Of a DNA stretch of 41,781 nt, positions 8,965-32,484 are shown one piece after another. Positions within the stretch are counted from its first letter, which is position 1; each line of letters starts with the position of its first letter. Below the pieces are notes generated by a model. That model searched no databases. It saw only the letters and a list, made by a program, of their open reading frames with translations, and had not been told where the DNA came from. This DNA is from a virus. Its lineage: Duplodnaviria > Caudoviricetes. The stretch lies in IMG/VR virus record IMGVR_UViG_3300049854_000029, positions 1 to 41,781 of that record. One strand, 5' to 3'. A program made the translations under genes and the position numbers.

Positions 8965-8971
8965 GATACAC

Positions 8972-9583
8972 CTAAATCCTGGACCGCCTCTCGCTGTGCC
9001 ATTTGCCAGACCTGTCCCTCCAAAACTTGCCAAACCGGGCGATCATCCCGTTCGTAAGGGGATTACTCTTTTTGTGCGTGTCACAAACAGAGTTGATCTT
9101 TTTGGTTATGTACTCGTCTAAGAGTGCCGGGTTTACAAGCTGGGGCTTCTCCCAGAGATAATCTATGATCTCGAACCATTGCCAGGTGATCACCTTCTCC
9201 GCCTGCTTGTACCTCTCAATCTGGATCTCCATCTGGTCAGTGATAGACTTTCTCATCAACTTGAAACAGCGACACCCTCCCTTGGGATAAGAGTCAGACC
9301 TACAGCAGAGCTCGCTTTGCCACTGATGGAAGGATTTCCCGTCATGCTCAGCCCTGAAATGTTTCATGAGCTTCTTGTCACCCAGAAACGAGACCGGATT
9401 TGGCTTGTGATACTCGTCACAGAGATCGTTGAAGAACTTCCTGTTCCTGCGTATCAGCTCTGGAGAGACAAGCCATATGTTCTCCATAACCGTGTCAATA
9501 ATGTCCAAACCCATATAGTCTTCTTCTTTACTTATTCTCTTTGTCTGCTCCAGCCACTCCATTAAAGAATTGCCTTGTGCCAC
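8972..9583 (-). CDS. Hypothetical protein
   Basis: ORF track; AAGGAG RBS before GTG. Confidence 0.7.
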   Translation of the reverse strand: MAQGNSLMEWLEQTKRISKEEDYMGLDIIDTVMENIWLVSPELIRRNRKFFNDLCDEYHKPNPVSFLGDKKLMKHFRAEHDGKSFHQWQSELCCRSDSYPKGGCRCFKLMRKSITDQMEIQIERYKQAEKVITWQWFEIIDYLWEKPQLVNPALLDEYITKKINSVCDTHKKSNPLTNGMIARFGKFWRDRSGKWHSERRSRI

Positions 9584-9592
9584 ATTTTCTCC

Positions 9593-9952
9593 TTATGGTA
9601 TGGCCTTAAAGAGGAAACTTAAAATACCTCCAACAACCCCCGAAAAGGCCACCCAGAAAACCCATTTGTGTATGACTTTTACCTGCTCTGAAAGCATCAT
9701 AATGATCTGCTGCTTCTTCTCTAAGTCCACTGCCAAAGACGAAACTTGGTTGACTAGGTCCATGACCTTCTCTAAGGTCTTCTGTCCTGTGACGGCCACC
9801 CCATTGTCCACCCGGTCAGTCACCCTATCAATCCGCACTTTGATCTCTGACATTTGTTCGTTTATGCGACCCATGTCAGTCTTGATTTTTTCGATCTTGT
9901 CATCGGCCAGCCGGAATAGGAGAAACTCTTTTGGCGACTCGTCAACCATCAC
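9593..9952 (-). CDS. Coiled-coil protein with C-terminal TM helix (holin/XhlA-like lysis accessory)
   Basis: Heptad-rich body followed by WVFWVAFSGVVGGILSFLF; adjacent to the endolysin. Confidence 0.7.
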   Translation of the reverse strand: MMVDESPKEFLLFRLADDKIEKIKTDMGRINEQMSEIKVRIDRVTDRVDNGVAVTGQKTLEKVMDLVNQVSSLAVDLEKKQQIIMMLSEQVKVIHKWVFWVAFSGVVGGILSFLFKAIP

Positions 9953-10012
9953 TTCTTCCTCTTACAGCCGCCAAAGCGAATGGTGATCTTCAGGATGTAC
10001 CCATCGAGGAGT

Positions 10013-10468
10013 TTAAGAAGATAGTGCAACACGGAACTTGTCCAGATTGAACAGTTTACCCGGACAGCTCTTCCTCTGGTCCGGGGTGAGCCCTGCCATG
10101 GCCTGGGCTTCTCTGTGACCTATAACTCGGCTTGGATCAATCCCGTGATCCTCCATAAGCCACTGGCAAAGACCGACTGCCTTTTCCCACATGTCTATTG
10201 GAGGAGGTGCTATATCAAAATTTCCGATGAGACAAATCCCGTAAGCTTTCTTGTTCATTTCTCCGTGGCAGTGTGCGCCAACCTGGTCTGGCATTCTGCC
10301 AAAAAGGATCTCAACGTCCGGCCCGACACGGTCCAGTAAAAAGTGGTATCCCACATCTTTCCATCCAAGCGACTTATGATAAGCCCGGATAGCAGGAACG
10401 TCTAAGGTCCCATGATCTGTAGAGAAACTATGGTGAAGAACGACATATGACTTGGAAACGTTACTCAC
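10013..10468 (-). CDS. Endolysin, N-acetylmuramoyl-L-alanine amidase (Amidase_2, T7 lysozyme-like)
   Basis: VVLHHS, GWKDVGYHF, GAHC, GICLIGNF, GHRE and KSCPG motifs. Confidence 0.93.
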   Translation of the reverse strand: MSNVSKSYVVLHHSFSTDHGTLDVPAIRAYHKSLGWKDVGYHFLLDRVGPDVEILFGRMPDQVGAHCHGEMNKKAYGICLIGNFDIAPPPIDMWEKAVGLCQWLMEDHGIDPSRVIGHREAQAMAGLTPDQRKSCPGKLFNLDKFRVALSS

Positions 10469-10651: not shown

Positions 10652-11881
10652 TTATTGGATTTTCGCAATTCTTAAATATACTGTTGAAGCCCCTTCTGAT
10701 GTTGTCTCGTCTCCGTCGGAATCTATATAGACATAAATGGACACTGTTTGCCCCGCTGTGAGATATAAAGGGACCGACAAGGATGGGGTGGCGTTCCAAC
10801 CAGTACCAGCGGAATTGTATGTTTGAACTGTTATTGTCCCGCTTACTTTTATCCACATTCCATATCTTGATTGATCTGCCACACCGTCAAAAACAACAGC
10901 TGATGAAACCATATAGACTCCGGCCACTGTTGCTGTAAAAGAGTCCGTTGTAACACTAAATTCGTTTTGTGTATCCGTCACTTCCGTGTCCCAATTTACT
11001 AGGGTCCAAGCAGCATCTGGAATGGTTTGATTGTTTGCTTGATAGACGGATACATATGATTGAGAAGACATTGAGACAATGCCAGCGGTATTGATGGTTA
11101 ATACATCGCCAACGCCATTAAAAGTATTACTATTCACTTTGCAAACTATTGATTTACCTTCTCCACTTTGAAGGACTAAAGCAGACTGGTTATACCCAAT
11201 TTGGTTACCGTTACTGTTTCTAAGGGTGATGAAATGATTATTATTTGTCCCGTCTCCTAGAACAAGAGCCTCGCCATTTCCAGTAGAATTAGCGGTGATA
11301 GGATCAACTACTGTAAGACCCCCTGACGTATTGATTTGCATCAAAAGATCTCCATTGCTGTTTTTCCAATTCAGATCTCTGGAGGTTTGAATGACTGAAA
11401 GCGCAGTGCCGGTATTCCTAAAATAAAGGACCGGGCTATATGTGTTGGAACCATTCGCATCAATCGTGAGAGTCACATTTCCGAGGGTACCTCCTCTGTT
11501 GACGGTCAATTTCCCGTTGGCTGTAGTAGTTCCAATGCAAACACTCCCGTCACCAAAAACAGAAAAAATATTTCCAGTTGTATCGTCTTGCGAAGATACA
11601 GAGACAATGAAATCCGACGGAGCATGGTTGGACACAATGTCCAGCATTGCATCTGGGGTTGTATCGTTTATTCCGATGTGACCATCCACACTCAAATTGT
11701 TGTCAATGTCCAGGTTCCCAGAGATCCGCTTCAAGCTGAAGATGTTTTGCTCTAAACGAGAAAAGTTCCTGTTGATGGCTGAGGTGTCGTTCTTGTTGTA
11801 CCTGTCTGTAATCACTTGCATCTGACCAGCCCAGACAGCGAGAGGAACCAGGAGGGCTAGAAGAAGAAAGGTGCGTTTCAT
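10652..11881 (-). CDS. Tail fibre/spike-like protein with N-terminal signal peptide and C-terminal C1q-like domain
   Basis: Start at an ATGA overlap: MKRTFLLLALLVPLAVWA; GxIGIxTTxP fibre repeats; C-terminus FTATVAGVYMVS...LYLTAGQTVSIYV. Confidence 0.75.
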   Translation of the reverse strand: MKRTFLLLALLVPLAVWAGQMQVITDRYNKNDTSAINRNFSRLEQNIFSLKRISGNLDIDNNLSVDGHIGINDTTPDAMLDIVSNHAPSDFIVSVSSQDDTTGNIFSVFGDGSVCIGTTTANGKLTVNRGGTLGNVTLTIDANGSNTYSPVLYFRNTGTALSVIQTSRDLNWKNSNGDLLMQINTSGGLTVVDPITANSTGNGEALVLGDGTNNNHFITLRNSNGNQIGYNQSALVLQSGEGKSIVCKVNSNTFNGVGDVLTINTAGIVSMSSQSYVSVYQANNQTIPDAAWTLVNWDTEVTDTQNEFSVTTDSFTATVAGVYMVSSAVVFDGVADQSRYGMWIKVSGTITVQTYNSAGTGWNATPSLSVPLYLTAGQTVSIYVYIDSDGDETTSEGASTVYLRIAKIQ

Positions 11882-13332
11882 TGGCGTTGCCTTTTTTTGT
11901 TGAGATAGTATTGGTATCCCATAGTTCCACCGGCAGTCATGGCAGGAGGAAGAGAAGCAACTGGCCACGCCAACTTGGTAAGATTTGCACCTATTCCCGC
12001 TCCCCGATTCCGTAGGCCTTGTAGAATTCCCAATGTCGTGAGAGCCCTACCTACGTTCCCAGACGCCAACTGGGCAGACCCAATGATGATAGAAGGTAAG
12101 CTGAACATGTTGTTCCCCTTCTCCCCCGTGAGTTTTTGCATGATTCCAGTCTTAGCATGCCTGGCAAGACCATAGTTTTTCTTTGCCTGGAGATATCTTG
12201 AAGCCATCTCTTCTCCTTCGGGGCCAAATCTTGACGCATTTCTCTCAACTTCCCCAGAAACTATAACGTCCATCCGGTCATATGCTTTCCTGTAAACTTT
12301 CGTGGCGGGGTCTTTGGAATCACCACGAAAGCCTGTGTTTCCCCATCTCTTTTGAAGTTGTTGGGCTTGGGCAATAGAAAGCGGGCGAGTTCCATCTTTT
12401 GTGAGCCTATTTATGTCGTCAGTAATAGACTTCATGGCGGCTTCTTCTTCCGCAAAGACAGGTTTGATTTCTGAAGCAAGTGCATGGTCCAATTTCTTTC
12501 CTTCCATTTGTGCCCCAAGTGCATCGGCTTGGGATATCACATCTTCCATTTTGCTCCATTCGGCGTTCAAGATATCATCAACTGCGTTCTTCGTTGATTG
12601 GATGCTGCCGGTTTTCGATATGAGACCTTCGTCTCGTAGAAACCTTGAGGACTCTTGTGCCCTCCTTACGAGGCGTTCTGTCTCTGCTGTGTTGCCAAGT
12701 TTGTGCATCGTAGATTTATTGAATCCTGCATGGCGCATCGCTAGATTCTCTCCAGCCAGGTCAACCTTCTTCCCACCCAATGGAATCATCCCAGACAATG
12801 TTCCAAGGGCCGCCTGCTGAATGAGATTACTGACCTGGTCACCCATTTTCTTGTCCAAGCCTGGAATTGGAATCCTTGGCAGTTCTTTGTTTACAAAGGG
12901 AATCGGGACAGGCACTTTAGGAGCCACCTCTGCTCCGAGGTAATGTCTTCCAATTTGCCTGGCAGATTCTCCCGCCGCAGCTCCCAACCCTGCCAACCCG
13001 CCAGCCCCTGCAAGCCCTATTCCCCCAGTGGAAGCTGCACCAATAACAGGGAAAGCTACTGTTCCTACTGCGGGGGCAGCTTCGAGAACATCCAACGCCG
13101 CCTGTTTTGGGTTTTGAACGATTCTTTTAATATCTTCACTTGCTGCTTTTGCCCTGAATGGGAGCGTCATCTTGAGCGCATTCCTCGCTCCCAGTCCTAC
13201 TCCTTGCTTTATTTGTTGCCATAGACTGGGCTTTTCTTCTGGTTGGGAAACAATTCCAAGTTCTTCATTGGTCGGAGGTGAATCCATCCACGAGAGCTCC
13301 TGTTTTGTCGGAGGAGAATCGTTCCAAGCCAT
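11878..13332 (-). CDS. Putative internal virion/DNA ejection protein
   Basis: A/G-rich helical protein with hydrophobic GxxxG stretches; third of three ORFs after the tail hub. Confidence 0.6.
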   Translation of the reverse strand: MAWNDSPPTKQELSWMDSPPTNEELGIVSQPEEKPSLWQQIKQGVGLGARNALKMTLPFRAKAASEDIKRIVQNPKQAALDVLEAAPAVGTVAFPVIGAASTGGIGLAGAGGLAGLGAAAGESARQIGRHYLGAEVAPKVPVPIPFVNKELPRIPIPGLDKKMGDQVSNLIQQAALGTLSGMIPLGGKKVDLAGENLAMRHAGFNKSTMHKLGNTAETERLVRRAQESSRFLRDEGLISKTGSIQSTKNAVDDILNAEWSKMEDVISQADALGAQMEGKKLDHALASEIKPVFAEEEAAMKSITDDINRLTKDGTRPLSIAQAQQLQKRWGNTGFRGDSKDPATKVYRKAYDRMDVIVSGEVERNASRFGPEGEEMASRYLQAKKNYGLARHAKTGIMQKLTGEKGNNMFSLPSIIIGSAQLASGNVGRALTTLGILQGLRNRGAGIGANLTKLAWPVASLPPAMTAGGTMGYQYYLNKKRQRQ

Positions 13333-13333
13333 C

Positions 13334-14389
13334 TTATTTTCCTCCTCGCCTGAGTTTGATTTGGTTGGCTTGTTCGGGACTTATTCCATATTTTGTGGCG
13401 TATTCAATGACATCTGAAGAAAATTGCACCGGCATTGGGTTTCCACCTGGGGTTGGCTGGGCGGGTTTGCCAGTAAGTGCTCCATAGGTACTTTCTGCCG
13501 CCTTTAGTTTCTCTGAGATCATGAGTTGCACATTGGTCATAGCAATATCTCTTTCCACCTGGGACATATTAGGCAGAGCACCGTAAACCTGATTGAGGTA
13601 CATTCGTTCGCTGTCTGAAAGTTGCCCTCCGAACGTTGACTTGAGAACCTGTGCAACCTGCGCCTGCATTGTGTTCACCACATCTGCCGTATTTTTGAAG
13701 GTTGGATCGTCCTTCCCTTTATTGAGCAGCGATTTCACTTTGAATGTGGCCCCACCGATAGCACCTCCATAGGAATTCTTGTTCAGTTCCTGGACTCTCG
13801 AAATCTCAGACAAGACTCCTTCAACCATGGGACGAACCTTTGAAAGATCTATTTGTGCCTTGACCTCTGCCTTGGCTTTCTCTCTTTGTTTTGTTGCCTC
13901 GTATGGAGATAGAGGAGCTGGCTTAGCGGCCTTGAGTTGCGGAACCGGGGCCACAGGTGCCTGTTCAACAGGTGGCTCCACCATTTGTCTTGGAAGTGAG
14001 TTGTAGCGTTGAATGCCAATGGATTTCAGGACATCCAACGGAGTGGGCTGAGCGGCCAAGGGAAGCTGTGTTTCTGGCATTGCCCCAGCCAAAAGTGCCT
14101 GTTCCTGTGGTGTAGGGGTCGTTCCCGGAAGCTCATTGACAGTTGTTGGAAGCGGTGCCCCAGTCCCATACTGGGCCACACCAGACCTTTGATCCTCAGC
14201 CAACTGCTGGTCGAGTTGCCTGTTCCGAATCTCCAACTGCTTCAATGCTATCTCGTTCTGTTTCTTCTTCAGGTTGTACTCCATCAACAGCTCAGGAAGA
14301 TTTGCTATTGATTTCCCCAGCGTCTCATTCAACGCTGCATACTTAGACGCTGGTGGACCGAAATTAGGTGGTTGAAATTGTAACGCCAT
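13334..14389 (-). CDS. Putative DNA ejection protein
   Basis: Pro/Gln-rich linker and GGQLSDSER motif; podovirus synteny. Confidence 0.6.
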   Translation of the reverse strand: MALQFQPPNFGPPASKYAALNETLGKSIANLPELLMEYNLKKKQNEIALKQLEIRNRQLDQQLAEDQRSGVAQYGTGAPLPTTVNELPGTTPTPQEQALLAGAMPETQLPLAAQPTPLDVLKSIGIQRYNSLPRQMVEPPVEQAPVAPVPQLKAAKPAPLSPYEATKQREKAKAEVKAQIDLSKVRPMVEGVLSEISRVQELNKNSYGGAIGGATFKVKSLLNKGKDDPTFKNTADVVNTMQAQVAQVLKSTFGGQLSDSERMYLNQVYGALPNMSQVERDIAMTNVQLMISEKLKAAESTYGALTGKPAQPTPGGNPMPVQFSSDVIEYATKYGISPEQANQIKLRRGGK

Positions 14390-14404
14390 ATGAGTGGTCT
14401 CCTT

Positions 14405-15526
14405 TTAGCCCCGTTTCATCAATGCTGTCGTGGCTGCTGAAGCAATATTTCCCGCAATGCCATATAACCCAGCTTTGTCTTGGGCTTTCATCTGTTGCCG
14501 CAAATAGTTGTTGTAATCGCTCTGCTGCCTGTAATAGTCCTCAATCTGCTGGGCTCGGCTGAGTGTCCGTTCTGCCTGTTGGTATGGGTACATAGCTTGA
14601 TAGTTTGTTAGGGCAGATTTAGCTTGATAATCTGGCGCACTGTCTCTCAAGTATTGGTCGTAAGCTTTGCCTTGCGTCCCAAGATAGTCTTCCCTGTTAT
14701 ACCCAAGCCCGCGCACAGCATCTTCGTACTGAAGCCCTGACATGTAGCTCTCACGGTTTTTGGACAGATCTGCTCTGGCGTTGGCTATGGCAGAATCTAA
14801 CCCAGAAGAGTTTATACGCCCGCTTCTCATGTACTCGGCAATGATTTGAGGAGTGGACCTCTTGAACGCTTCTTCCTCGGTTGCCAGCATCTGGGTCTGA
14901 AGTGCGTTTCTGGCAGCCTCGGCTTCTGTCGTGTACTTTTGCTGTTGGATGGTGTTTTGTTGTTCCAGGTACTCAGGGCTCTGCTTGAGCAGGTTTCCCA
15001 TCTCGTAGTTGGACATACCCCCAGCGATCTGGTCTGAGAAATAGTCCAGCTCGTCCTGGGTGGGGTCTCTGCCAATAATGCTCTTGAACGTGGCCGCAGC
15101 GTTGGTCTGATACCCTACCGTTTTGTCTGAAACAATCTTCTCACCTGTGAACGGGTCTTTTGTGGGGTCGCTCTGGGACTTGAGGGAAGCATTCCCAAGC
15201 TGAGTGACGATATGGTCGACGGCTGTCTCACTTATCCCATTTGAAAACCCGCCGCCATTGGCTTTCTTTGCAACCTCGAAAGCCTGTTGAGGTGTAAGGG
15301 TTAGACCATAGTCAGTAGCGTATGTCTGCGCCTGGGAAATGAGCCCTTGGATTGCACCCATAACTTCCCGGCCACGTTCGTTGTAATTCTTTGACCCTGC
15401 TGACCCATATACAAATTCCCAATCCTTTGCTGTTGGAGGCTCACCAAACGTAGCCTGCCATTCCTGCTCGAAAAGAGCTTTTTGTCCTTCTGGATCGTTA
15501 TGTGCTCCTGAACCGCTTGCTCCCAT
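14405..15526 (-). CDS. Putative DNA ejection (pilot) protein
   Basis: Q/A/Y-rich helical protein with an MG(S/A) N-terminus and a G/A-rich C-terminus; synteny. Confidence 0.6.
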   Translation of the reverse strand: MGASGSGAHNDPEGQKALFEQEWQATFGEPPTAKDWEFVYGSAGSKNYNERGREVMGAIQGLISQAQTYATDYGLTLTPQQAFEVAKKANGGGFSNGISETAVDHIVTQLGNASLKSQSDPTKDPFTGEKIVSDKTVGYQTNAAATFKSIIGRDPTQDELDYFSDQIAGGMSNYEMGNLLKQSPEYLEQQNTIQQQKYTTEAEAARNALQTQMLATEEEAFKRSTPQIIAEYMRSGRINSSGLDSAIANARADLSKNRESYMSGLQYEDAVRGLGYNREDYLGTQGKAYDQYLRDSAPDYQAKSALTNYQAMYPYQQAERTLSRAQQIEDYYRQQSDYNNYLRQQMKAQDKAGLYGIAGNIASAATTALMKRG

Positions 15527-15539
15527 CTTAGTTCTCCTT

Positions 15540-17888
15540 TTAAGGTATCACGCGCCAGGGTTTCGGCTCGTAAGAATAGCTGAGGCCATACACTTCCCAT
15601 GGGGCATCGCCTTCCTGGTTTCCGACCTGAAGGGAAAGAAAAGTGCCAAATGTGCCAGAGGGAAGGTAGTAATTGATTCGGTGGACGCTGTTTCCGTCCG
15701 CGTCCGTGAGGGTGAAATTGTTGCTGACTGAAGATGAGGTGTTGACCGTGTGAGTGATATCTAGGTTGGAACCTGTCTGTGACTTGGCCAGGATACTCAC
15801 AGAGTCATACATTTTCTCTTGGTAAGGCGCGGCTGAAAGGAAGTCTTTGCTCTTCCAGTACGATGTTATGGCTGACCCAGCATCTGTGTTCCCTGACGGG
15901 AATTGGTTGACTGTCCCAATGCTGGCTGTGCTAAAGTAAACCGTTCCGTCTACGTTTACGGGTGCATTGAAAGGAACGTCGTATTTAAGCCAGGTGTCGA
16001 ACCGGGGATCATAAATATAGGAAGTATTGTTTGATGCGCTCCCATCTTCTGCGACAGCCCAGACAATGCGGTGGTTTTTATCGACAACACCCCAGGTGAC
16101 AACACTGCCCCCTTCATTCCAACGCACGTCAACAGCGTTTACCGCAGGCGTCTCTGTGGAAACAGAGCGAGTGAAAGTGACGCCAACAGTTACATAAGCT
16201 GCCGTGGCAATAGTGGGGACACTGCCACTAGTTATGGTCTGGGAAGAAGTATATGTGCCAGTGTTGGACAGAGTAATACTTGTGTCGGTGTCACCATAGA
16301 TAGCATATGCTATGGAATCCCCTGTCCCTGAAAGTGTCTGATTTGCTTCAAAAATGCCCCAAGATGAAACATTTGATCCTGTTGCATGAGACTCAGATTG
16401 ATAAACAGAAGATGAATCAGCCACAAGGAAATACATGTCGTATTGCGGAGTTAAGGTTTGAGATCCAGCCAAAGCTGATGCAGACAAACCGCGCGAATAC
16501 ACATCTGAATTTTGATAGGACCAAGCCCAGGCATATGTACAAAGTGCTCCACAACTTTGGCTCGCCATTGTGCTTACAACAATCCAATATGTCGTATTTG
16601 CTGAAAGAGACACCGCGGGAGAAAATGTCACATTAAAATAACCTTGATTCGCCTCTAACACGTAAAATGTGGCAGTTGACAAAAATGTGCTTGACCACGC
16701 AGTTGTGCCGTTTGTGCGAATGGTCCAAGTGCTCGTCTGGGGATTAGTTGCTTCCTCCGGCCTCGATTCCGCAAGGTATAAGCGGGCGTAAGAAAGAATA
16801 AAGTCATTCTGAGGCCTAAACGATTGGCCTTTAGCACCGACCGACGTTTTAAGAAGAGAATTGCTGTATTGATTGCCTTCATAAGAATCAAATAGAGACC
16901 CCGGGGCTGAAGTCGAAGACAGATATCCTCCAAACGTTCCCGCCCCCCAATCGGCCTGCGATGTTATCGTCCACCCATTCATGCCTGGAATTGTGAAGTC
17001 ATCCACAGACCCGCTTATCTTCTTTGAAATCCAAGCGATAGAGTTTCCGTCATAGCTGTAAAAGTGCCCATCTTGACCCTGCCAATAGACCAACCCCAGA
17101 TCGTGAACAATGGAGTGTGACTGTACAGTCCCAATCGTGTTAGAAACATCTTCGAATGCACCGTCAAATTGGTTCGTCCCTGCCCAGTAAGCCAGTGTAT
17201 TCTTAGTCCATATGAGGAGTCTTCCGAAGACGTATTTAAGAGCCTGGATGCTTTGGCCTGGCATGCCAAAGGTCTCGTAGAAAGGGTCTTCTTCATTGTT
17301 CCCGGTTGTGAAATCGGTGGGATCTGCGAGCTTAGAGAAATTGATCCTGTTTGGGTTTGCCGTGGTTCCAGAGACCACGAACCTGTCTGGAGTAAATTCT
17401 AAGATGCTTCCCTTCGGTGTACTGGGATAATAGGTAAGCGTCGTCCCGTCGTATCTCCAAATCTCGTCATGGCTTGAGTTCCCCCCATACAAGTATCCCA
17501 AGCTGTCTGCGAAGTCCCAGTAAGAGTCCAGGGTGGCTGTTGTGAGGAAGTTCGTGTAAGCCCCGGAATTCCGACTTCTACTGACAAACTTGTTGTGAGC
17601 GTGGACTATGTTGTCGTACCCAGAGGTGTCCCTAAAGAAATGGGCCCCATTGACCGGAGCTGTTGAAACAGTGAGGCTCTTAAATTCTGCGTAACCTGAG
17701 CGTTTCTTGATTCCGTAACCGTTCTCTGTAACATCCACATTCAACAGATCCTGCGCCTCTTGATCTTCAATGAGAATGGACGCGTCCCCATCATTCAATC
17801 CGCGCATGCTCCCACCAATAGAAAACTGGGCAGCAAAGAGGTTACCAGCCAATCCAAAAGCAGCGAAGAAACCAAGTAGAGTTTTCAT
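15540..17888 (-). CDS. Tail hub/nozzle protein (P22 gp10 / T7 gp12-like) with N-terminal signal peptide
   Basis: GLN...EAQDLLNVD...IKKRSG N-terminal pattern, beta-propeller-like repeats (NRINFS), C-terminal ITSYWKSKDF...EKMY; directly follows the adaptor. Confidence 0.8.
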   Translation of the reverse strand: MKTLLGFFAAFGLAGNLFAAQFSIGGSMRGLNDGDASILIEDQEAQDLLNVDVTENGYGIKKRSGYAEFKSLTVSTAPVNGAHFFRDTSGYDNIVHAHNKFVSRSRNSGAYTNFLTTATLDSYWDFADSLGYLYGGNSSHDEIWRYDGTTLTYYPSTPKGSILEFTPDRFVVSGTTANPNRINFSKLADPTDFTTGNNEEDPFYETFGMPGQSIQALKYVFGRLLIWTKNTLAYWAGTNQFDGAFEDVSNTIGTVQSHSIVHDLGLVYWQGQDGHFYSYDGNSIAWISKKISGSVDDFTIPGMNGWTITSQADWGAGTFGGYLSSTSAPGSLFDSYEGNQYSNSLLKTSVGAKGQSFRPQNDFILSYARLYLAESRPEEATNPQTSTWTIRTNGTTAWSSTFLSTATFYVLEANQGYFNVTFSPAVSLSANTTYWIVVSTMASQSCGALCTYAWAWSYQNSDVYSRGLSASALAGSQTLTPQYDMYFLVADSSSVYQSESHATGSNVSSWGIFEANQTLSGTGDSIAYAIYGDTDTSITLSNTGTYTSSQTITSGSVPTIATAAYVTVGVTFTRSVSTETPAVNAVDVRWNEGGSVVTWGVVDKNHRIVWAVAEDGSASNNTSYIYDPRFDTWLKYDVPFNAPVNVDGTVYFSTASIGTVNQFPSGNTDAGSAITSYWKSKDFLSAAPYQEKMYDSVSILAKSQTGSNLDITHTVNTSSSVSNNFTLTDADGNSVHRINYYLPSGTFGTFLSLQVGNQEGDAPWEVYGLSYSYEPKPWRVIP

Positions 17889-18565
17889 AGACCTTTGAAA
17901 TACCTTCCTCCCCTCATGCGCATAGGAGTACTGGCGGCCATATGGTTAAAGGTCTCAATGCAATCAGAGACAAACTTGTCATATTCTTTCCGATACTCGG
18001 CAATCATGGCGAGGTGTTCTTGGGTGGGGTAAACGCGCAAGAGGTCCGCTGCTGCCCAATATGCTATGGCCATGTGGTAGGGGTAGAGGAGCGTGTGCCC
18101 GTCAAAGGGAACAGAACTGTCCCCAGTCAATGCCGGAGGCATCTTGATATATTCAATTCTTAGGTTGTTTGTCCCAGCGTCCCCACCTTCTGGAATGGGG
18201 TATAACCCAAGTTTCTGGTTGTTTGGGTCTATGTCGATGTAATAGTTTGTGGGTGAACCCGTGTCGTCTTGCCAGTCGTTCCCAGCCTCAATGTAGAGGT
18301 CATACTTTGATATACGCTTCAGTAAATCGTAGTTGGCAGAGACAGTGAGAATGTCAACCGTGTCTGTTGGGAGGGTGTACTCTGCTGTCCCGGAAACAAT
18401 GCTGTCCGTTGTGTTGTCAGTCAGAACCCTCGTATCAGAAACAAAGTGTTCTTGTCCTTCCTCGATCTTCGCCTGGACCTTAGATGTGCTCCAGCGACGG
18501 TTGTCTGGGTCTCCTGTTAAATCTCCTATTCGTTGCTGCAGTGTCAAACGTGTGAGCGACGGCAT
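17885..18565 (-). CDS. Head-tail adaptor (P22 gp4 / T7 gp11-like)
   Basis: SGTAEYTLPTD, GSPTNYY, LGLYPIP and YHMAIAYWAA patterns typical of podovirus adaptors. Confidence 0.8.
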   Translation of the reverse strand: MPSLTRLTLQQRIGDLTGDPDNRRWSTSKVQAKIEEGQEHFVSDTRVLTDNTTDSIVSGTAEYTLPTDTVDILTVSANYDLLKRISKYDLYIEAGNDWQDDTGSPTNYYIDIDPNNQKLGLYPIPEGGDAGTNNLRIEYIKMPPALTGDSSVPFDGHTLLYPYHMAIAYWAAADLLRVYPTQEHLAMIAEYRKEYDKFVSDCIETFNHMAASTPMRMRGGRYFKGL

Positions 18566-19649
18566 GCGTGATCTCCTTTAATAAAATGTTCTTGTACGTC
18601 ACAGCCATATCGGTTATGTTGAATTTCTGGAGCGCGTCCTGGTACGCCCTCTCTCCAATTTCAACCCGTTTCTTCTCATCTTTTATGAGCGTTTCCAGGT
18701 ATTCCACCCATTGGTCTGGGGTGTCTGCCAAATACCCGTTTACCCCATGTTCTATGGTCTGTTTGAAATGTGGGAGCGGAGAACAGACAGAAGGGGTTTT
18801 GAGCGAGGCGTATTCCAACCATCTGAGATTCGATTTGCCCCGGTTGAAATTGTTGTCAACCAGAGGGGCGATACCTATATCAAACCCAAAACTTGAGACC
18901 CAGTCTGGGTACTCATTTATTGGGGTGAACTCGTGGGTCCAATGAATTCTGTCGTGATGCTTGAAGAACTCAGGGCACCCGTGAATGCATTTGAAGGTCA
19001 CTTCAGGGTTTCGTTCCAGCACCTTGAAAATGGGATCTTTGACAAGTTCAAGGTCTGGGGTGTGGCTCCCTCCTCCGACCCAGCCAATAGTAACGCCCTG
19101 GCGGCCTGGGGAGGGAGACTTCTTCCGCCAGAGCGTAAAATCTATCGCATTCTCGGCAACGTGTATCCGAGGGTTCATTTCTTTGTACAAATCAGCCAGA
19201 AAGGGAGTAGATACAATGACCCCATCAGAGGCTTTCATCTGCTCGCAGAATATCTTGACGATCTCAGTCCCAGGCCCAAAAACCTGGGCTGCCGTGTTCC
19301 CAGGGGGAATGGAAAAGATGTAATCATCTATCTCCATGAGAAACGGCTTAGATTCAAACTGCCATCTGAGAGCCTGCCAGAGGTCCATGCTGTGCCGGGT
19401 GTGAAGGGCCATAAAGACCATGATGTCTGCCCATTCACAAGCCTTTTTCATCTGCTTTTCTATCTCAGGGCCATGTTCTAGGGTCAAAAGATCCGTCTCC
19501 CAGGGGTGCATCAAGTACCCGTTGTGCCCGTAGTACATGACCTTGGCTTCGACACCGATCTTCTTTAAGGCCTGGGCAGGCTGGTACACGCGCCAGAAGT
19601 TCACTCCAGAAACGTTTGTAGGTACGAAGATGACCTTTAGTTTAGGCAT
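18480..19649 (-). CDS. Glycosyltransferase, GT-B fold (GT4-like)
   Basis: EIDDY, IGWVGGGSHTPDL, DIGIAPLVDNNFNRGKSNLRWLEY, HGVNGYL. Confidence 0.9.
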   Translation of the reverse strand: MPKLKVIFVPTNVSGVNFWRVYQPAQALKKIGVEAKVMYYGHNGYLMHPWETDLLTLEHGPEIEKQMKKACEWADIMVFMALHTRHSMDLWQALRWQFESKPFLMEIDDYIFSIPPGNTAAQVFGPGTEIVKIFCEQMKASDGVIVSTPFLADLYKEMNPRIHVAENAIDFTLWRKKSPSPGRQGVTIGWVGGGSHTPDLELVKDPIFKVLERNPEVTFKCIHGCPEFFKHHDRIHWTHEFTPINEYPDWVSSFGFDIGIAPLVDNNFNRGKSNLRWLEYASLKTPSVCSPLPHFKQTIEHGVNGYLADTPDQWVEYLETLIKDEKKRVEIGERAYQDALQKFNITDMAVTYKNILLKEITHAVAHTFDTAATNRRFNRRPRQPSLEHI

Positions 19650-20317
19650 ATGACCTTCAGTTCACGGATCTTGTCAATGTCCCGTGGTTTATCTATTTGC
19701 CTGTAGATGGCCAGGTTCTTGTCAATGAACCCAAACTCGAACCCTGCCTTGTAAGCGTCCACCTGAAATTTCCAATCGTCTATCCCATGCTTAGAGAACT
19801 CTCCGTCTGTGTACCGGACCTGGTCAAAGACCTTACGCCTGAACGCCATGGTCGAGTGCCCTATGTGCGCGAGCCCGGTCTCTTTTAGGGTGTTCCAGTT
19901 AAAGGGTCTGGAGTCGCTTCTGCCAAACACTTCTCCCAGCTCGTGCATCACAAGGAAATGGCCGCTCAGGATGCTCATTTCTGGGTTCTTTTTGAAGTAG
20001 GTGAGGGTCCATTCTGCCCTCTCTTTCACAGACAGATCGTCCGCGTCCATCATGAGGAGAACGTCTGCCTGGGCTTCTTCAATACCCCGGTTCCTGGCGT
20101 TTGACCTGCCCCCATTCTCTTCGAGAGTGACGATCTTCAGCCTCTTGTCTTCCCCTGCCTTGGTCGTGAGAATGCTGCCAGTCCAGTCTGTGGACCCGTC
20201 GTTTACAACCACCACCTCAATGTCTTTTATGGTCTGGTTGAGGCATGAGTTGATAGCCTGCGCTATGTAGGGCTGGCCGTTAAATACTGGGATGATAAAA
20301 GACGCCTTGGGCTTCAT
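19637..20317 (-). CDS. Glycosyltransferase family 2
   Basis: SFIIPVFN, VVVNDGSTD, ARNRG, DADD; start at 20317 behind GGAGGTG. Confidence 0.92.
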   Translation of the reverse strand: MKPKASFIIPVFNGQPYIAQAINSCLNQTIKDIEVVVVNDGSTDWTGSILTTKAGEDKRLKIVTLEENGGRSNARNRGIEEAQADVLLMMDADDLSVKERAEWTLTYFKKNPEMSILSGHFLVMHELGEVFGRSDSRPFNWNTLKETGLAHIGHSTMAFRRKVFDQVRYTDGEFSKHGIDDWKFQVDAYKAGFEFGFIDKNLAIYRQIDKPRDIDKIRELKVICLN

Positions 20318-21822
20318 GACACCACCTCCAGCACCGGGGACCCTATTAAGGCAGACACCTTCTCTTTCAACTCGTTCCCGCTCCACAGGTCTAGGTAGTA
20401 ATCCTGCGCCTCTTTGTTTACCTCGGTCTTGGCCTCTATCTCTTTGATGCGGTTTATCATGTCGTTTATGAACGGGGTGACCTCTTTATCGGTGCTCAAA
20501 TACCCAGAATATGGGGCTGGGACGTTGGTGATGGGGTAACGCCCGTTAACCAGCATGAGCTTGGTTAACATCTCAAGCCGCTTTCCTTTGGTGAACTGGA
20601 TGATCCCTGAATAGTCCCGGATATCGACGTTCCCAACATTCATGATATTGTCGAACTTGATCCCTGGAAGAGCCTGCATGACTGTCCCCATGGCTGTCCC
20701 ATACACGTCATCTGTAAACACGAGCATCTTGAACTCCTCTGGCAGGGTCTTGTGAACGTCTCCCTCACCAACCGGGAAATTCACAAGTTCGGCCTTGATC
20801 CCAAGGTCATCCAGACGCCCCTGAGTCACCTTGTCGTCACAGAAGTGATAGTCAACACTATCGTTAAGAAACTTAACTAATGCGATAGCCGCACCAAACG
20901 GGCGGCTGGCGTAGAGTTTCTCAGCGTCTATCCCCATCCAAAAAATGGCCTTTTTTTCACATGTTTTCATCATATTGACTATGCCATAAACGTATTTCAT
21001 GTCGTCTACGACGGCCTCGGCCAGGACACAGCCAACATGAATGCCGAGCTTGTAGTTCCTCACGATGTAATAGGGACCATTGAAGGTGTCCGCATCGAGG
21101 ATTTTGGCCAGTCTCACTGCGTCGTATCTGAAAGCGTCAGCGTTTATCAGAACATCCTTGTCCTTATCCCCCCACCACCTCTTCCGCACCTCTTCAATGC
21201 GCGCCTGGACATCTACTCCAGGGCCTGAAATGGAGTTTTTGTCAGGCATGTCAGTAGAAAATCCGAAAGCCTGGAGCCACCGAGGTCTCACCCCGTTCTG
21301 TACGCACCTGCGCGCGTAGTCCCAGTCCTGGAGACCTTTGAGCTCCTCATTCCACTCAGGAGCCTTGTCCCTTTTGATGAAAGACATCGAAGAAATATAG
21401 TTGTATTTGGACAGCGTAAACGCGTCGAATGGCTCCCCATTGTGCCCTGGAAGTTCCGGGTTTGTGTACCTGTACCCCGTGTAAACCATGTCCACATCCG
21501 GGCTCTCAAACTCTTTTAAGACCAAGGCTGTCGTGTCTGGCTCAATGTAACAGTCTGCGTCCCAGGCGCACACAAGGTCACCTGTACACACCTTGAGCCC
21601 AGCATTCCTAGCCTTACACGCCCCACCATGCTCTATGTTAACCTTCTTAACCTTGCCCTCTTCTGCCAGTTTGTCCACATAAGACTCCACGATGGGGTCT
21701 TCTCCGTCAAACACGCACACCACCTCAACGTCTTTGTGGGACTGGTCCAACAGGGTCCCCAGGCACTTCTTCAGCTGGTCCAGCGATTTCTTGTATATTG
21801 GGACGTAGAACGAAACTTTCAT
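20314..21822 (-). CDS. Glycosyltransferase family 2 fused to a C-terminal domain (possibly a degenerate GT-B)
   Basis: SFYVPIY, VFDG, GACKARNAG, WDAD and QDWD in the N-terminal half. Confidence 0.85.
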   Translation of the reverse strand: MKVSFYVPIYKKSLDQLKKCLGTLLDQSHKDVEVVCVFDGEDPIVESYVDKLAEEGKVKKVNIEHGGACKARNAGLKVCTGDLVCAWDADCYIEPDTTALVLKEFESPDVDMVYTGYRYTNPELPGHNGEPFDAFTLSKYNYISSMSFIKRDKAPEWNEELKGLQDWDYARRCVQNGVRPRWLQAFGFSTDMPDKNSISGPGVDVQARIEEVRKRWWGDKDKDVLINADAFRYDAVRLAKILDADTFNGPYYIVRNYKLGIHVGCVLAEAVVDDMKYVYGIVNMMKTCEKKAIFWMGIDAEKLYASRPFGAAIALVKFLNDSVDYHFCDDKVTQGRLDDLGIKAELVNFPVGEGDVHKTLPEEFKMLVFTDDVYGTAMGTVMQALPGIKFDNIMNVGNVDIRDYSGIIQFTKGKRLEMLTKLMLVNGRYPITNVPAPYSGYLSTDKEVTPFINDMINRIKEIEAKTEVNKEAQDYYLDLWSGNELKEKVSALIGSPVLEVVS

Positions 21823-23459
21823 TAAGCCCTCCCCTTTTCGATCATGTAGTTGCCCAACACCAGAATGTCTATCCCAACCCCATAAAAGCAGCGAATTGCC
21901 TCTTCGGGGCTGCGAATGATGGGTTCCCCCATGACATTCAGGGATGTATTGAGCAAAACGGGATGGCCTGTCTTTTCGCCGAAAGCAGTCAAAAGCTCGT
22001 GAAATTTGGGATTGTCTTTGTGCCTAACAATCTGGGGCCGGGCTGTCTTGTCTACGTGGGTGACCGCAGGAATGCTCCCATTTCTGACTTTGCAGGCAAT
22101 GATCATGAATTCGTTTGCGCCGGCGTAGAAGTATTTGTCGTAAGCCTCTTCAGTGACAGAGGGACAAAAGGGCCTGAAACCCTCTCTGAACTTGACGTAT
22201 TTGTTGATGATGTCCTTGTTCTCTGCCTTGAGAGGGGACATTAGGATCGAACGGTTCCCGAGAGCCCTGGGGCCCCCTTCCATCTTCCCTTGGAACCAGC
22301 CCACAATCTTGTTCTCAGCCAAAGCCTCAGCCACGCGGTGGAGACTGTAAGGCTGGTAAGAGATCTTGTTCCTTTTAAGAATTGCCTCTATTTCTTGATC
22401 TGAATATTCAGAACCGTAGTAGAGATGTGAAAGCCTCTGCGGGACGTAAGGGTTTGTCTTGTGATATTCCAGGAGAGCAGCACCTATTGAAAGGCCAGAG
22501 TCTGAAGCCAAGGGAAAGGGCCAATAGTTGTCCAGGCCGCACTCTTCCATGATACGCTGGTTCAGCTTGACATTTAGGAACACCCCCCCTGCAGTACACA
22601 GGTTCTTTTGCCCGGTGCGTTTCATCCACCGCTTTATATAGGTAAGGATCTTGTTTTCAAGGATCTTCTGGGCTGAAGCTGCCACGTTCTCCCGCCCATA
22701 TTTGGCAATCATCTTCGTATACTCGTCCGCCGCCCCGAAGTGGTAGTACACCTGGCCATTGTTATGGTAGAAGCCCATCGGTTGCACCTTGTACATGTGC
22801 TCTTTCATCTCCCGTTCAGGCACCTTAGAAGCGTCTCCAAAAGGGGCCAGCCCCATGGTTTTCCCCTCGTCTTGGCAAGGTTTGGCAAACAAAGCCTCTG
22901 TAACAGACCCATAAAACCAGCCCCAGGAGTAAATGGACTCCTTCTTGTATTTCCTGACCCGGAACACACCGTCTTTGCCCCTGATGTAAACTCCGTCCGT
23001 CTTGACGTAAGCCATGGGCTTTATCTTTCCGCCAGATCCGATATACACGCACTGAGTAACATCGCTCCCAATCCCGTCAATCGTGATGATGAGGCTCTCC
23101 TTCAATCCAGAGGTGTAATACGCGCTCGCAGCATGACAATCGTGGTGCGGTATCTCGATGACAGCCTTAACGTCGTAGCCCTTCTGTTGGTATGGGACCG
23201 GCATCCCAAAAGAAGATTTGGCCTTAAATGCCACCTCAAAATGAACTCTCACAATATTGGTAAGACCGTCTGAAATGGCGATTTTGTCCACGTCTTCCAT
23301 CTTGTCTCCATTGAGACAAAACTTGACGGAATCGAGCACGCCATTGACCCCCGTCTTGATCCGGTTGAACCTTTCTTCTGCTATGTATCGAACGATCTTT
23401 CCATCTTCCACGAGACACGCATTCGAATCGTGCCCAATGGAAACTCCCAGAACTTTCAT
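21822..23459 (-). CDS. O-carbamoyltransferase (NodU/CmcH/TobZ family)
   Basis: GHDSNA, EERFNRIK, HHDCHAASAY, DGIG, EGKTMGLA, AGGVFLNVKLN, GPRALGNRSIL, REGFRPFCPS, LNTSLN. Confidence 0.95.
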   Translation of the reverse strand: MKVLGVSIGHDSNACLVEDGKIVRYIAEERFNRIKTGVNGVLDSVKFCLNGDKMEDVDKIAISDGLTNIVRVHFEVAFKAKSSFGMPVPYQQKGYDVKAVIEIPHHDCHAASAYYTSGLKESLIITIDGIGSDVTQCVYIGSGGKIKPMAYVKTDGVYIRGKDGVFRVRKYKKESIYSWGWFYGSVTEALFAKPCQDEGKTMGLAPFGDASKVPEREMKEHMYKVQPMGFYHNNGQVYYHFGAADEYTKMIAKYGRENVAASAQKILENKILTYIKRWMKRTGQKNLCTAGGVFLNVKLNQRIMEECGLDNYWPFPLASDSGLSIGAALLEYHKTNPYVPQRLSHLYYGSEYSDQEIEAILKRNKISYQPYSLHRVAEALAENKIVGWFQGKMEGGPRALGNRSILMSPLKAENKDIINKYVKFREGFRPFCPSVTEEAYDKYFYAGANEFMIIACKVRNGSIPAVTHVDKTARPQIVRHKDNPKFHELLTAFGEKTGHPVLLNTSLNVMGEPIIRSPEEAIRCFYGVGIDILVLGNYMIEKGRA

Positions 23460-24295
23460 TTCCCCCCCAATATCTTTTCGAACTCCTCTTTGTATTTGGA
23501 AAACACGTCAGGCAACGGGTCTTTCCTAGGCTCAAACATGAACGATCCAAAGACCCCAGACTGCGTTTGGAGGTGCACTCTGGGATGATTCTTTACCGCG
23601 TCCCAAACGTGCACATCGTCTTCCATCATGCACCCGTGAGTCACAGCCTCCACGCTTGTTGTTATAACTCGGTACATCTTCTCTTCCCGCCTCTGCAGGG
23701 GCTTACATTCGCAGAAATGCCAGATCTTGGCCCCGGAATCTTGGACCACAAACGGATAGTTCCCGAAGTCTTTGAAAAGTTTGTGGTCTGTGCCTGTAAT
23801 GTCCCCGAAATACATATCCTCTTCCTGCGCCCCGTAGAACCCGTGATAATGGAGGCCAAACCTGTTACGCATGATGGTCTTCCACTTGTCTGTCCGGCCT
23901 TTGGTGATCTCAAGGTCTAGGTCTTCTCCAGCGAAAGATCTCATGTTCACGTAGTAGGCCAAGACCTTCTTGTCCAAGCCTTGGAGGTTCCCTGGGTCCA
24001 CCACGATCATGTCAGGGTGCAAATACATCACATGGTCCTTGGTACAGGTCTTAAGGCACTCATCAAAGACCCTCGTATAATCTTCTTTGAAGTCCTTGAA
24101 GTCTTTGTCTCTGAACACTTTTATCTTGTTGTCTTTGTCGTAAGTGCCCTTGATGTAATCCAATAGTTCCAGAGTGCCATCAGTAGAGTTCCCGTCGAAG
24201 TAAATCACCTCGTCCGCGTAGGGCAGGACAGACATCAACCCATACCCTATGAACTGCCTCTCGTTCTTGATGACACTCCAAACGCTAAGAGACAT
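23456..24295 (-). CDS. Glycosyltransferase family 2-like
   Basis: IKNE...DEVIYFDGNSTDGT...LHPD. Confidence 0.82.
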   Translation of the reverse strand: MSLSVWSVIKNERQFIGYGLMSVLPYADEVIYFDGNSTDGTLELLDYIKGTYDKDNKIKVFRDKDFKDFKEDYTRVFDECLKTCTKDHVMYLHPDMIVVDPGNLQGLDKKVLAYYVNMRSFAGEDLDLEITKGRTDKWKTIMRNRFGLHYHGFYGAQEEDMYFGDITGTDHKLFKDFGNYPFVVQDSGAKIWHFCECKPLQRREEKMYRVITTSVEAVTHGCMMEDDVHVWDAVKNHPRVHLQTQSGVFGSFMFEPRKDPLPDVFSKYKEEFEKILGGK

Positions 24296-25315
24296 TTACC
24301 AACCCGCTGGCGCGGTGCCTCCAGCATTGATTTGTCCCCAATCACCGCAGTTTGCAGTCGCAGTCGAAATGATGACAGCCTTGTTCGTCGAGTCGTACCA
24401 CACCTCCCCCACCGCGGTCGGGGTTGACAGTTTGAGGTTTGCTTCTGTTTTGGAAGGCAGAATGAACGGACCGTTTAGTGTGAACGTCACACCGTCGTCC
24501 AATGTCAGGGCAGTTGGAGTCATGGTTGAGATGGCAGTCCCGGAACCCATCAGAAACTGATTTGTAACGGTTGCACTCGTGACAGACAGTGCACCGCTCA
24601 CGGAAACAGTGCCAGCAGTTCCGTTCGAGATCGTTTGCCCGTTTTCGAGGACAATGTCTGCGTCAGATATATTGGCTCCGCTCAAGTTCAGGCCATATTT
24701 ATATCCGCCACTTGCAGCGTTGCTGATATAGATTCCATTCGTGACAGCAACGGTTGGGTGTTCATTGTAGATCCACAGTCCGTGGAAATTGTTGACATTG
24801 GCAGTTGATATATTGGTGAAATATGGAGCCATCCAAATGCGAGCTCCCACGAATGCTGTCCCAGACTCGGCAGCAATGGCATCTCCCCCACTGTACGAAG
24901 CACGCGCGGAGAATTCGCCGCCCACACCAGTCCGCATGGTTGCCCCGGGAGCGATGTATGTCCTCCCATACACTCCGCGCCCTGTCATGGACTCGTCTGC
25001 TCCATAACTTGCAGACACACCTTCAACCCCTTCGGAAACGAAGTTACCGTTGTCTCCGACATACCAGTTGTACCGACCTCGAACGACTCCCACCTCAGCC
25101 GCACTGGCCGGGCTCGCCGTGATAGACGAGAGAAATGAGTAATACACCGTCCCATCCGAAGCAGCGGTCCCTTCGTTGTAGGTTGCACTCAACTTGCTGG
25201 CCGTTCCGAGGGTCACGTTCCCGCTGTGAATATTGGCATCTGAGTCAGCTTTCACCCCACCAGCCATTGCGACTGCGGGACACGATAAACAAATGAGAAC
25301 CAGTAACCGCCTCAT
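24296..25315 (-). CDS. Beta-rich putative virion spike/decoration protein with signal peptide
   Basis: MRRLLVLICLSCPAVAMA N-terminus; G/S/T/A-rich beta repeats; GEVWYDST motif. Confidence 0.65.
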   Translation of the reverse strand: MRRLLVLICLSCPAVAMAGGVKADSDANIHSGNVTLGTASKLSATYNEGTAASDGTVYYSFLSSITASPASAAEVGVVRGRYNWYVGDNGNFVSEGVEGVSASYGADESMTGRGVYGRTYIAPGATMRTGVGGEFSARASYSGGDAIAAESGTAFVGARIWMAPYFTNISTANVNNFHGLWIYNEHPTVAVTNGIYISNAASGGYKYGLNLSGANISDADIVLENGQTISNGTAGTVSVSGALSVTSATVTNQFLMGSGTAISTMTPTALTLDDGVTFTLNGPFILPSKTEANLKLSTPTAVGEVWYDSTNKAVIISTATANCGDWGQINAGGTAPAGW

Positions 25316-25698
25316 CGAAGTGCATCCGATTTGATCCAGTAAATGACCCGCACATTGGTGTCCCCTCCGGCGGCAGCGTCAGCCATGCCGTAAAGAGAAC
25401 CTGTATAAACACCGTCTGTGGTGAAGGTCTTAGAGGAGAGTATTGGAAGGCCCATTGTGGTCAATGACGTTGTATTGGACCCGATCCAGAGCGTGTAAGC
25501 GTTGTTGCAGAAAATGTCGACCGCTGCCGATTGGATGGCGTAAGTCGGATCAACAATCTGGGTGGCCGTGTGAGTCGTAACCGTTACGCTTGCCGTCCTA
25601 ATAGAGTTCCCGGCGTTCCGGCTCTTCGCCGTAGCCCAGGGATCTGCGAATAAACTTGTTGGAAGTAAACACAGCAGTACAGCTAAGGCTTTTTTCAT
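25312..25698 (-). CDS. Small beta-sandwich putative virion protein with signal peptide
   Basis: MKKALAVLLCLLPTSLFA N-terminus; AAGGAG RBS; T-rich beta pattern. Confidence 0.65.
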   Translation of the reverse strand: MKKALAVLLCLLPTSLFADPWATAKSRNAGNSIRTASVTVTTHTATQIVDPTYAIQSAAVDIFCNNAYTLWIGSNTTSLTTMGLPILSSKTFTTDGVYTGSLYGMADAAAGGDTNVRVIYWIKSDALR

Positions 25699-25720
25699 CT
25701 TTCTTCTCCTTTTTTAGGTC

Positions 25721-30185: not shown

Positions 30186-30347
30186 TTACGCCAAGTCGTG
30201 CACGAACAAAATAACGCCAGCTGAGGGGTTCAAACATGCCGCAGCGGCACTGATCTTGTAAGTGATCTGACTATAAGTCGAATATGGGTTGGAATGAGAT
30301 GCACCGCTGATTTGGTACATCTGAAGTCCGCCCATAATCTCTGTCAC
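30186..30347 (-). CDS. Major capsid protein, exon 2 (53 aa)
   Basis: VTEIMGGLQMYQISGASHSNPYSTYSQITYKISAAAACLNPSAGVILFVHDLA* matches the expected N4-gp56-type C-terminus (NP...Y/WK...A..LN). Confidence 0.9.
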   Translation of the reverse strand: MTEIMGGLQMYQISGASHSNPYSTYSQITYKISAAAACLNPSAGVILFVHDLA

Positions 30348-31410: not shown

Positions 31411-31434
31411 TTAAGTTCTACGGCACTATTCGTT

Positions 31435-32460: not shown

Positions 32461-32484
32461 CTAAGGACCGTTTTTCTTCCTCCC

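Follow-up and report, generated by a model that had tools for sequence, protein, structure and literature searches.

The window analyzed here is the whole of a viral DNA record of 41,781 nucleotides, IMGVR_UViG_3300049854_000029 (41.8 kb), which carries direct terminal repeats and whose completeness is rated at 100%. It is the complete genome of a temperate podophage, read as temperate because an integrase is encoded on the plus strand, and no match to it was found when 50,697 GenBank phages were compared. The minus strand carries a terminase-like gene, the genes for portal, scaffold, capsid, adaptor and tail hub, three genes in the ejection-protein position, the gene for a C1q-knob protein and the lysis region; the terminase, scaffold and ejection roles were assigned from gene order. 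Four of the encoded proteins, namely the tail hub (or nozzle), the C1q protein, a fibre-like protein of 339 amino acids (aa) and a 128-aa jelly-roll protein, begin with signal-peptide-like leaders, and these leaders are the subject of this report. The coordinates are collected in Table 1.

Table 1. Features of the window, with the four leader-bearing proteins first (coordinates in nucleotides)
Feature	Coordinates	Strand	Basis or remark
Tail hub / nozzle, 782 aa, single copy	15540..17888	-	AlphaFold2 (AF2) and Foldseek fold match
Predicted Sec/signal peptidase I (SPase I) leader of the hub, 19 aa	17832..17888	-	ATGA overlap with the adaptor stop
C1q/TNF-knob protein, 409 aa	10652..11881	-	PF00386; phrog_13286 tail protein
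Predicted leader of the C1q protein, 18 aa	11828..11881	-	ATGA overlap
339-aa leader-bearing fibre-like protein	24296..25315	-	putative virion role
Predicted leader of the 339-aa protein, 18 aa	25262-25315	-	ATGA overlap with the upstream stop
128-aa leader-bearing single jelly-roll protein	25312..25698	-	AF2 fold
Predicted leader of the 128-aa protein, 18 aa	25645-25698	-	AGGAG 7 nt upstream of the start
Head-tail adaptor	17885..18565	-	PF24175, 6e-23; leaderless
Head module (portal PF23899, scaffold, major capsid protein phrog_1357)	30186..34685	-	leaderless
Three proteins at the ejection-protein position, without leaders or cysteines	11878..15526	-	role from gene order
961-aa fibre/spike, leaderless	26419..29304	-	phrog_6002, phrog_4636
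Four leaderless glycosyltransferases and a carbamoyltransferase	18480..24295	-	Pfam/PHROG matches
Lysis region: amidase (10013-10468), holin-like membrane proteins (9593-9952 and 8338-8586)	8338..10468	-

The sequence-only reading had proposed Sec-type leaders on these four proteins, and all four were found in place. It had also taken each start to be fixed by an ATGA overlap, a gap-free junction or a ribosome-binding site; three ATGA overlaps and one ribosome-binding site (AGGAG) were borne out, while a gap-free junction applied to none of the four. The leaders share one layout: they open with Lys/Arg, continue with a hydrophobic core free of charges, and have Pro/Gly ahead of the cut site and Ala at -1 (the -3 residues were Leu, Val, Ala and Leu). 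The features of Sec/SPase I signals (basic n-region, h-region, small residue at -1, length of about 15-30 aa) were present in every one. No lipobox was found in the window, and the leader of the 339-aa protein opens with MRR yet lacked, by eye, the consensus of the twin-arginine translocation (Tat) pathway. The leader calls were made with a hand-made rule, not SignalP. In its strict form the rule was passed by 6 of the 55 window genes and by 1.1% of shuffled proteins; the six were the four leader genes, the holin-like membrane protein at 8338-8586 and one glycosyltransferase, a beta-strand false positive. The capsid protein, portal, adaptor and 961-aa fibre were confirmed to be leaderless in the window, as had been claimed.

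The earlier assignment of a gp10/gp12-like fold to the hub, a beta-propeller with a platform, was confirmed by structure prediction. An AF2 model built from a 72-row alignment had a predicted local distance difference test (pLDDT) score of 84.7, with residues 441-485 poorly modelled, and the first ten PDB entries returned by Foldseek were all podophage tail entries with E-values from 2e-17 to 1e-10 (Pa223 at 2e-17, then LME-1, A4, Pan3, Carin-1, PhiM1, VP1, T7, P-SCSP1u and E1004), although the whole-chain template modelling (TM) scores were only 0.25-0.42. P22 gp10 appeared in the same list at 8e-10, and the matches in BFVD included proteins annotated as P22 gp10. The sequence profile of the hub had no Pfam, PHROG or PDB-sequence match, and the nearest named Atlas cluster was PF11134 at 0.80, which we treat as a lead only. 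The gene sits between the adaptor and ejection genes, within the portal-capsid-adaptor module. Since the complete genome holds only one hub gene, virions must use the leader-bearing hub.

The hub leader was retained by homologues in related phages. A rule based on the n- and h-regions was passed by 75 of 85 hub homologues (76 of 86 with the query), and among the ten misses five had a leader by eye, two had starts that fall within a leader, in two the called start lay at the mature start or beyond it, and the N-terminus of the last was unrelated. Mean identity between the hub and its homologues was 23% in the leader and 52% over the next 50 residues; the predicted leader thus varies in sequence, not in layout. 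A true hub start downstream of the leader found no support: the column of Met28 holds Phe or Trp in 66 of the 72 aligned homologues, and an internal leaderless start at this position was rejected in the absence of a conserved internal start. The close viral loci (given L numbers here) contained 33 hub open reading frames (ORFs), of which 19 had a leader by rule and the other 14 had one in frame by eye. Eleven of these 14, one of them a near-duplicate, had no ATG, GTG or TTG ahead of the basic region (L017, L019, L025, L026, L028-L032, L034 and L035; hub start near 9900-10000). Candidate starts for these hubs would be ACG, ATC, CTG or GTC, often inside the end of the adaptor gene, and some are preceded by a good Shine-Dalgarno site. 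The hubs in question cluster in 2-3 lineages, and their starts may tune the ratio of hub to adaptor.

The more distant hubs of L036, L038, L040, L041 and L042 were leaderless and began at the predicted mature start. A Sec-type cut site is supported by this, since homology to the leaderless hubs begins at the mature position. In a quick tree of 38 hubs, from which six rows were omitted as duplicates or fragments and which carried long-branch warnings for the outgroup, one branch (Shimodaira-Hasegawa-like approximate likelihood ratio test, SH-aLRT, 97) parted 31 leader-bearing hubs from 7 leaderless distant ones, whose N-termini, where intact, matched the predicted mature start.

We counted leaders by rule for each protein class in the viral loci and the window. 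None was found on the capsid protein (0/34), portal (0/19), scaffold (0/19) or first ejection protein (0/30), and 2 of 36 adaptors and 19 of 20 post-hub proteins had one; two sets of glycosyltransferases gave false positives at 1/66 and 1/34. Both leader-bearing adaptors belong to L021, which encodes two tandem SU10-type adaptors (8449-9911), and because both carry leaders the predicted export boundary can move in evolution. When 87 of the 96 leader-bearing proteins of relatives were sent to Pfam, most had no match, and those with a match included two tail collar (PF07484), three pectate-lyase and two adaptor proteins. By these predicted domains, leader-bearing relatives carry clear virion modules, namely tail collar PF07484, pectate-lyase tailspike and SU10 adaptor. 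The adaptors aligned with too much variation to serve in a locus scan; a scan with the capsid returned 4 loci and no leaderless sister clade. The leaders themselves are real, conserved throughout the clade and selective for outer parts.

The leaders are conserved clade-wide, occur on outer parts alone and include that of the single hub gene, so that their best reading appears to be that some of the particle is exported. Tethering of tail parts at the membrane, which the sequence-only reading had also offered, seems less likely since the leaders look cleavable. If they stayed uncleaved, they would anchor the tail parts to the inner membrane, where heads would dock and the particle would be finished. 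The hydrophobic N-terminal segments and the helix modelled by AF2 at hub residues 2-14 are in line with such an anchor, but the h-regions are short, small -1 residues stand just before the conserved mature start, and a 19-residue hydrophobic window is present in only two of the four leader proteins. In addition, by the positive-inside rule the basic n-region would put the body of the protein outside and not on the cytoplasmic face, and we consider this anchor unlikely.

Of the four supposed virion proteins the hub is firmly structural, while the other three were placed by position, domain or fold, without a direct match. The C1q protein is, from its sequence features, likely a tail needle or central fibre. 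In its predicted layout it resembles the Sf6/HS1 needle (PMC3741392), with a short N-terminal helical segment, shaft, C1q/TNF-superfamily knob and single gene per genome, the Sf6 needle likewise ending in a TNF-like knob, and the needle gene of SU10 is numbered right after the nozzle gene (PMC9509320). It differs from the Sf6/HS1 needle in bearing a leader, in that no sequence match to gp26 was found and in that the tips (C1q, collar, beta-helix) are swapped freely among relatives. Its Atlas look-alikes were viral, and its 2 other homologues aligned poorly as a mosaic. Relatives sharing its N-terminal motif (family B) passed the leader rule in 5 of 6 loci, and the sixth had a leader by eye. 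Family B and family A, the latter defined by the motif of a small gene after the hub in other relatives, were mutually exclusive: none of 38 long loci (duplicates included) held both, with 24 A, 7 B and 7 neither by pattern. The two families were not significantly similar by hhalign (E 0.13).

The 339-aa protein had no Pfam or PHROG match and shares a C-terminal module with the post-hub proteins of relatives. The 128-aa protein also lacked a Pfam or PHROG family match; 24 of its 29 homologues passed the leader rule, 4 more had a leader by eye and 1 was leaderless. Its AF2 model (pLDDT 88.3) is one jelly-roll, for which Foldseek gave no significant PDB match and the best match was a domain of the PM2 spike P1 at a middling score (Z 9.8, root-mean-square deviation 2.7, 86 residues aligned), and the modelled protein is likely a decoration or spike. 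These middling matches and the missing families of the 339-aa and 128-aa proteins would fit an account in which the hub alone belongs to the virion, or the leaders are relics, and the three remaining proteins, of host origin, are secreted and serve at the host surface or in lysogenic conversion. However, such an account leaves the hub unexplained, relic leaders would not persist across 27-50% identity or under the overlap with the adaptor gene, and relatives in the same slot carry tail-collar and tailspike domains. We regard it as very unlikely.

The leader-bearing proteins were also marked by a sequence motif. In an unbiased count, with expectations from shuffles, S-[S/T]-x-T came out on top, with 483 occurrences against 256 expected in the 85 hub homologues and 37 against 8.1 in the jelly-roll family. 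In 95 other leader proteins, drawn from 1039 dereplicated ORFs and having at least 16% S+T, the observed counts relative to expectation were 3.2-fold for SSxT, 2.5-fold for STxT, 1.3-fold for TSxT, 1.2-fold for TTxT and 0.7-fold for STxS, and after clustering at 40% identity 67 of 77 leader proteins were above the S-[S/T]-x-T expectation. Leader-bearing proteins are enriched 2-5 fold in S-[S/T]-x-T, and the enrichment tracks the leader across families. Leaderless groups gave 0.85-fold (capsid), 0.71-fold (adaptors), 0.73-fold (portal) and 1.09-fold (distant hubs), while the leader-bearing adaptors of L021 had 3 motifs against 0.5 expected. Within the window the 339-aa protein has 4, and the leaderless 961-aa fibre, which served as internal control, has 0 against 2.0 expected (P=0.13). 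Other glycosylation-type patterns were not enriched: N-x-[S/T] was at 1.04-fold in hubs and 1.00-fold in the other leader proteins, the Bacteroidota O-glycosylation motif D-[S/T]-[ALVIMT] was at 0.74-fold and 0.85-fold, respectively, and [S/T]-G-x-[S/T] was not enriched either.

Judging by the motif enrichment only, the putative modification is most plausibly O-glycosylation. Three to four leaderless glycosyltransferase genes lie between the capsid and adaptor genes in 31 of the 31 loci that show both. Two clade glycosyltransferases were searched for in the complete genome of L021 and neither was found, yet this phage has 16 S-[S/T]-x-T motifs against 5.1 expected; this points to a modification made by the host in its periplasm, and S-[S/T]-x-T would likely be the target of a host enzyme rather than of the phage's own cassette. 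In the window the virion operon encloses a sugar-modifying cassette (18480-26236 and 34951-35961, minus strand) of four glycosyltransferases, a carbamoyltransferase, a methyltransferase and an epimerase, all leaderless. Capsid, host glycan and a lipid-linked precursor are candidate substrates of this cassette.

The sequence-only reading had further linked export to disulfide formation, which turned out to matter little in this case: with their leaders removed the four proteins contain 2, 2, 1 and 1 cysteines, and disulfide folding as the main driver was rejected for this phage. Even cysteine counts were found in 52 of 68 dereplicated leader proteins, compared with about half or fewer in controls, and in 30 of 54 hubs. 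This weak cysteine pairing in the phage and in the hubs, together with a predicted export that covers exactly the late-added outer parts, agrees with an explanation in which export is real and mainly hides tail proteins from cytoplasmic immune sensors or prevents the arming of heads before lysis, folding and glycosylation being side effects. On the other hand, the asymmetry between SSxT/STxT and TSxT/TTxT suggests selection for a modification. We think that immune evasion or delayed arming is improbable as the main role of export; it has the split-assembly step in common with the model that we prefer.

In that best model, which we consider moderately probable, the outer parts would pass through Sec, lose their leaders, likely be O-glycosylated by the host and join the heads after the holin breach. 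The leaderless head parts of this two-compartment particle would remain cytoplasmic, while the hub, the likely needle or central fibre and the two likely surface proteins would leave the cytoplasm, lose their leaders and fold on the far side of the inner membrane, where a host enzyme would modify them at S-[S/T]-x-T. DNA-filled heads would meanwhile be held shut by a portal valve or by internal proteins. Once the holin-like proteins had opened the inner membrane, the cytoplasmic and exported pools would meet within an outer envelope that is still closed, and the heads would be sealed by hub and needle. Some form of split assembly, which covers this model and the immune-sensor explanation, is quite likely. 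The full model with a host glycosylation step at S-[S/T]-x-T is more tentative and falls somewhat short of an even chance. Similarly, we put forward as possible, and no firmer than that, the broadest statement: that a whole clade of temperate podophages sends its DNA-sealing tail end through Sec, has it glycosylated by an undescribed host enzyme reading S-[S/T]-x-T and completes its virion at lysis, with an export boundary that moves.

The lysis genes bear on the last steps of this route. The amidase is leaderless, and 9593-9952 and 8338-8586 are candidate holins by their hydrophobic segments. No spanin-type lipoprotein was found in the window, and downstream of the hub 1 of 40 long loci gave a match. 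As spanins are apparently lacking, the contents of cytoplasm and periplasm would, in a diderm host, run together within the outer membrane once a holin had breached the inner one. No stop codon separates the 82-aa holin-like ORF from an aromatic-rich ORF that lies upstream in the same frame (8338-8880, minus strand); in L057 the upstream aromatic-rich part has an end of its own, and L001 and L060 have a free-standing holin-like part.

Several observations weigh against export followed by glycosylation and joining at lysis. The weak point is retention of DNA in the heads. The T7 adaptor stabilises the open portal and the gates of the nozzle make the seal (PMC6702177), so that a cytoplasmic adaptor without a hub should leak, and 34 of the 36 adaptors are leaderless. 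Retention would demand either that the adaptor binds only together with the hub or that internal proteins plug the channel; in T7 even a tailless portal can close and retain DNA for a short time (PMC6702177). Three of the four leader proteins are virion parts by inference, and the large 961-aa fibre is leaderless. As for the motif, S-[S/T]-x-T was chosen post hoc from homologues that are not independent, and it resembles the S/T alternation of beta-strands. The C1q protein has 0 motifs, the window total is weakly enriched (9 against 4.6, P=0.037), and the leaderless family of relatives of the protein at 29825-30127 is enriched as well (5 against 1.1).

The retention problem raised by T7 (PMC6702177) would disappear if export were leaky, with a cytoplasmic share of the hub entering virions and an exported share acting as an envelope decoy or superinfection block. 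The phage is temperate by its integrase, and the 11 close loci without a canonical hub start suggest that unusual translation occurs in the clade, both of which would suit two pools of hub. Against this, there is no conserved internal hub start, the needle-like, fibre and jelly-roll proteins and both L021 adaptors carry the same leader, the genes sit in the late operon, and motif enrichment follows the leader across families. We consider such a division of the hub rather unlikely.

The prevailing view is that tailed phages assemble wholly in the cytoplasm and that the nozzle seals the head right after packaging. P22 and T7 assembly is cytoplasmic; podovirus nozzles described so far are not known to carry a leader, and they join the head within the cytoplasm as soon as packaging ends. 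Canonical, all-cytoplasmic assembly would call for tail proteins without leaders, whereas 75 of the 85 hub homologues carry one by rule. The podovirus tail machines (P22 gp4/gp10/gp26, T7 gp11/gp12, SU10 gp11/gp17/gp18 and Pa223) were compared through PDB entries 9nwi, 8eap, 6r21 and 7z47 and through PMC6702177 and PMC9509320. The window shares with them the portal-adaptor-nozzle gene set and the beta-propeller nozzle fold, and has SU10-type portal and adaptor Pfam matches, but its nozzle and likely needle carry predicted export leaders; in the available part of the SU10 paper (PMC9509320) the term 'signal peptide' occurs 0 times. By its parts the window particle is an ordinary podovirus, and the implied assembly route would be what is new.

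Virion proteins behind cleavable leaders have a precedent in the coat proteins pIII and pVIII of the filamentous phage Ff. However, these proteins stay membrane-anchored and the particle is extruded, with no preformed DNA-filled head and no lysis. Bdellovibrio MAT fibres are tail-fibre-like proteins that reach the cell surface behind signal peptides, but they serve bacteria as surface adhesins and do not belong to a phage particle, and no nozzle or adaptor comes with them in the available text (PMC10769870). Tailed-phage genes with predicted signal peptides are described in the Porphyromonas Nixviridae; there, the signal peptides belong to capsid proteins, for which prohead-protease cleavage is given as the explanation, to spanins, and to unknown proteins interpreted as modifiers of the host membrane, and the portion available proposes no exported tail (PMC10367356). 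Glycosylated mycobacteriophages (cited in PMC11256854) likewise encode glycosyltransferases and have proposed glycan-coated particles, but it is the major capsid proteins that bear their glycans, and the part at hand describes no export step, whereas in the window clade the motif goes with the leader and is still present where two phage enzymes are missing. In the literature searched, which covered few subscription papers and left Supplementary Data 4 of PMC10367356 outside, we found no exported tail hub or split-compartment assembly in tailed phages. An exported nozzle, if true, would make lysis an assembly step, with heads that hold DNA unsealed for longer, and would allow phage parts to use periplasmic folding and modification and to avoid cytoplasmic sensors. 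The S-[S/T]-x-T motif would give direct access to the host and to what may be an unknown O-glycosylation system of bacteria.

Searches for the host gave a weak hint. A GTDB scan returned only a 1.9-kb fragment in a Saccharibacteria metagenome-assembled genome (MAG), and 101 Saccharibacteria genomes held no other convincing match, with two weak partial matches; the fragment was read as probable mis-binning. One hub homologue, on a 25.6-kb contig, is labelled Chloracidobacterium, and the hub fragments in both kinds of MAG lie on short or phage-sized contigs. Among the 52 integrase relatives listed, the only organism name was Elusimicrobia bacterium CG1_02_63_36 (36%), a weak hint from sequence similarity that the host may belong to Elusimicrobiota. 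No host flank was seen in the 7 loci inspected. In L027 (21024-21259) a tRNA-Leu(TAA) with a partial second copy behind it has the look of an attachment site, from which the host could be identified. In the window, repeated AAAGCGGAACC-type words at 8125-8325, between the end of the integrase gene and the lysis genes, are an attP candidate.

The major capsid gene is split by a structured insert of 190 nt (30348-30537, minus strand) that starts after U and ends in G, and which we take to be group I intron-like. The 53 codons downstream of it align to the C-terminus of the L001 capsid protein at 54%. Rfam gave nothing in the window or in the insert, and the other loci had no similar insert and no gap where both capsid parts matched. 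A tRNA-Asn(GTT) was identified by ARAGORN at 39411-39488 (minus strand), where it precedes a long non-coding region rich in AT (about 38400-39400). Finally, a leaderless 100-aa beta-rich protein is encoded after the capsid gene (29825-30127, minus strand) and is present in 8 other loci; it is possibly a cytoplasmic decoration protein beside the one predicted to be exported.

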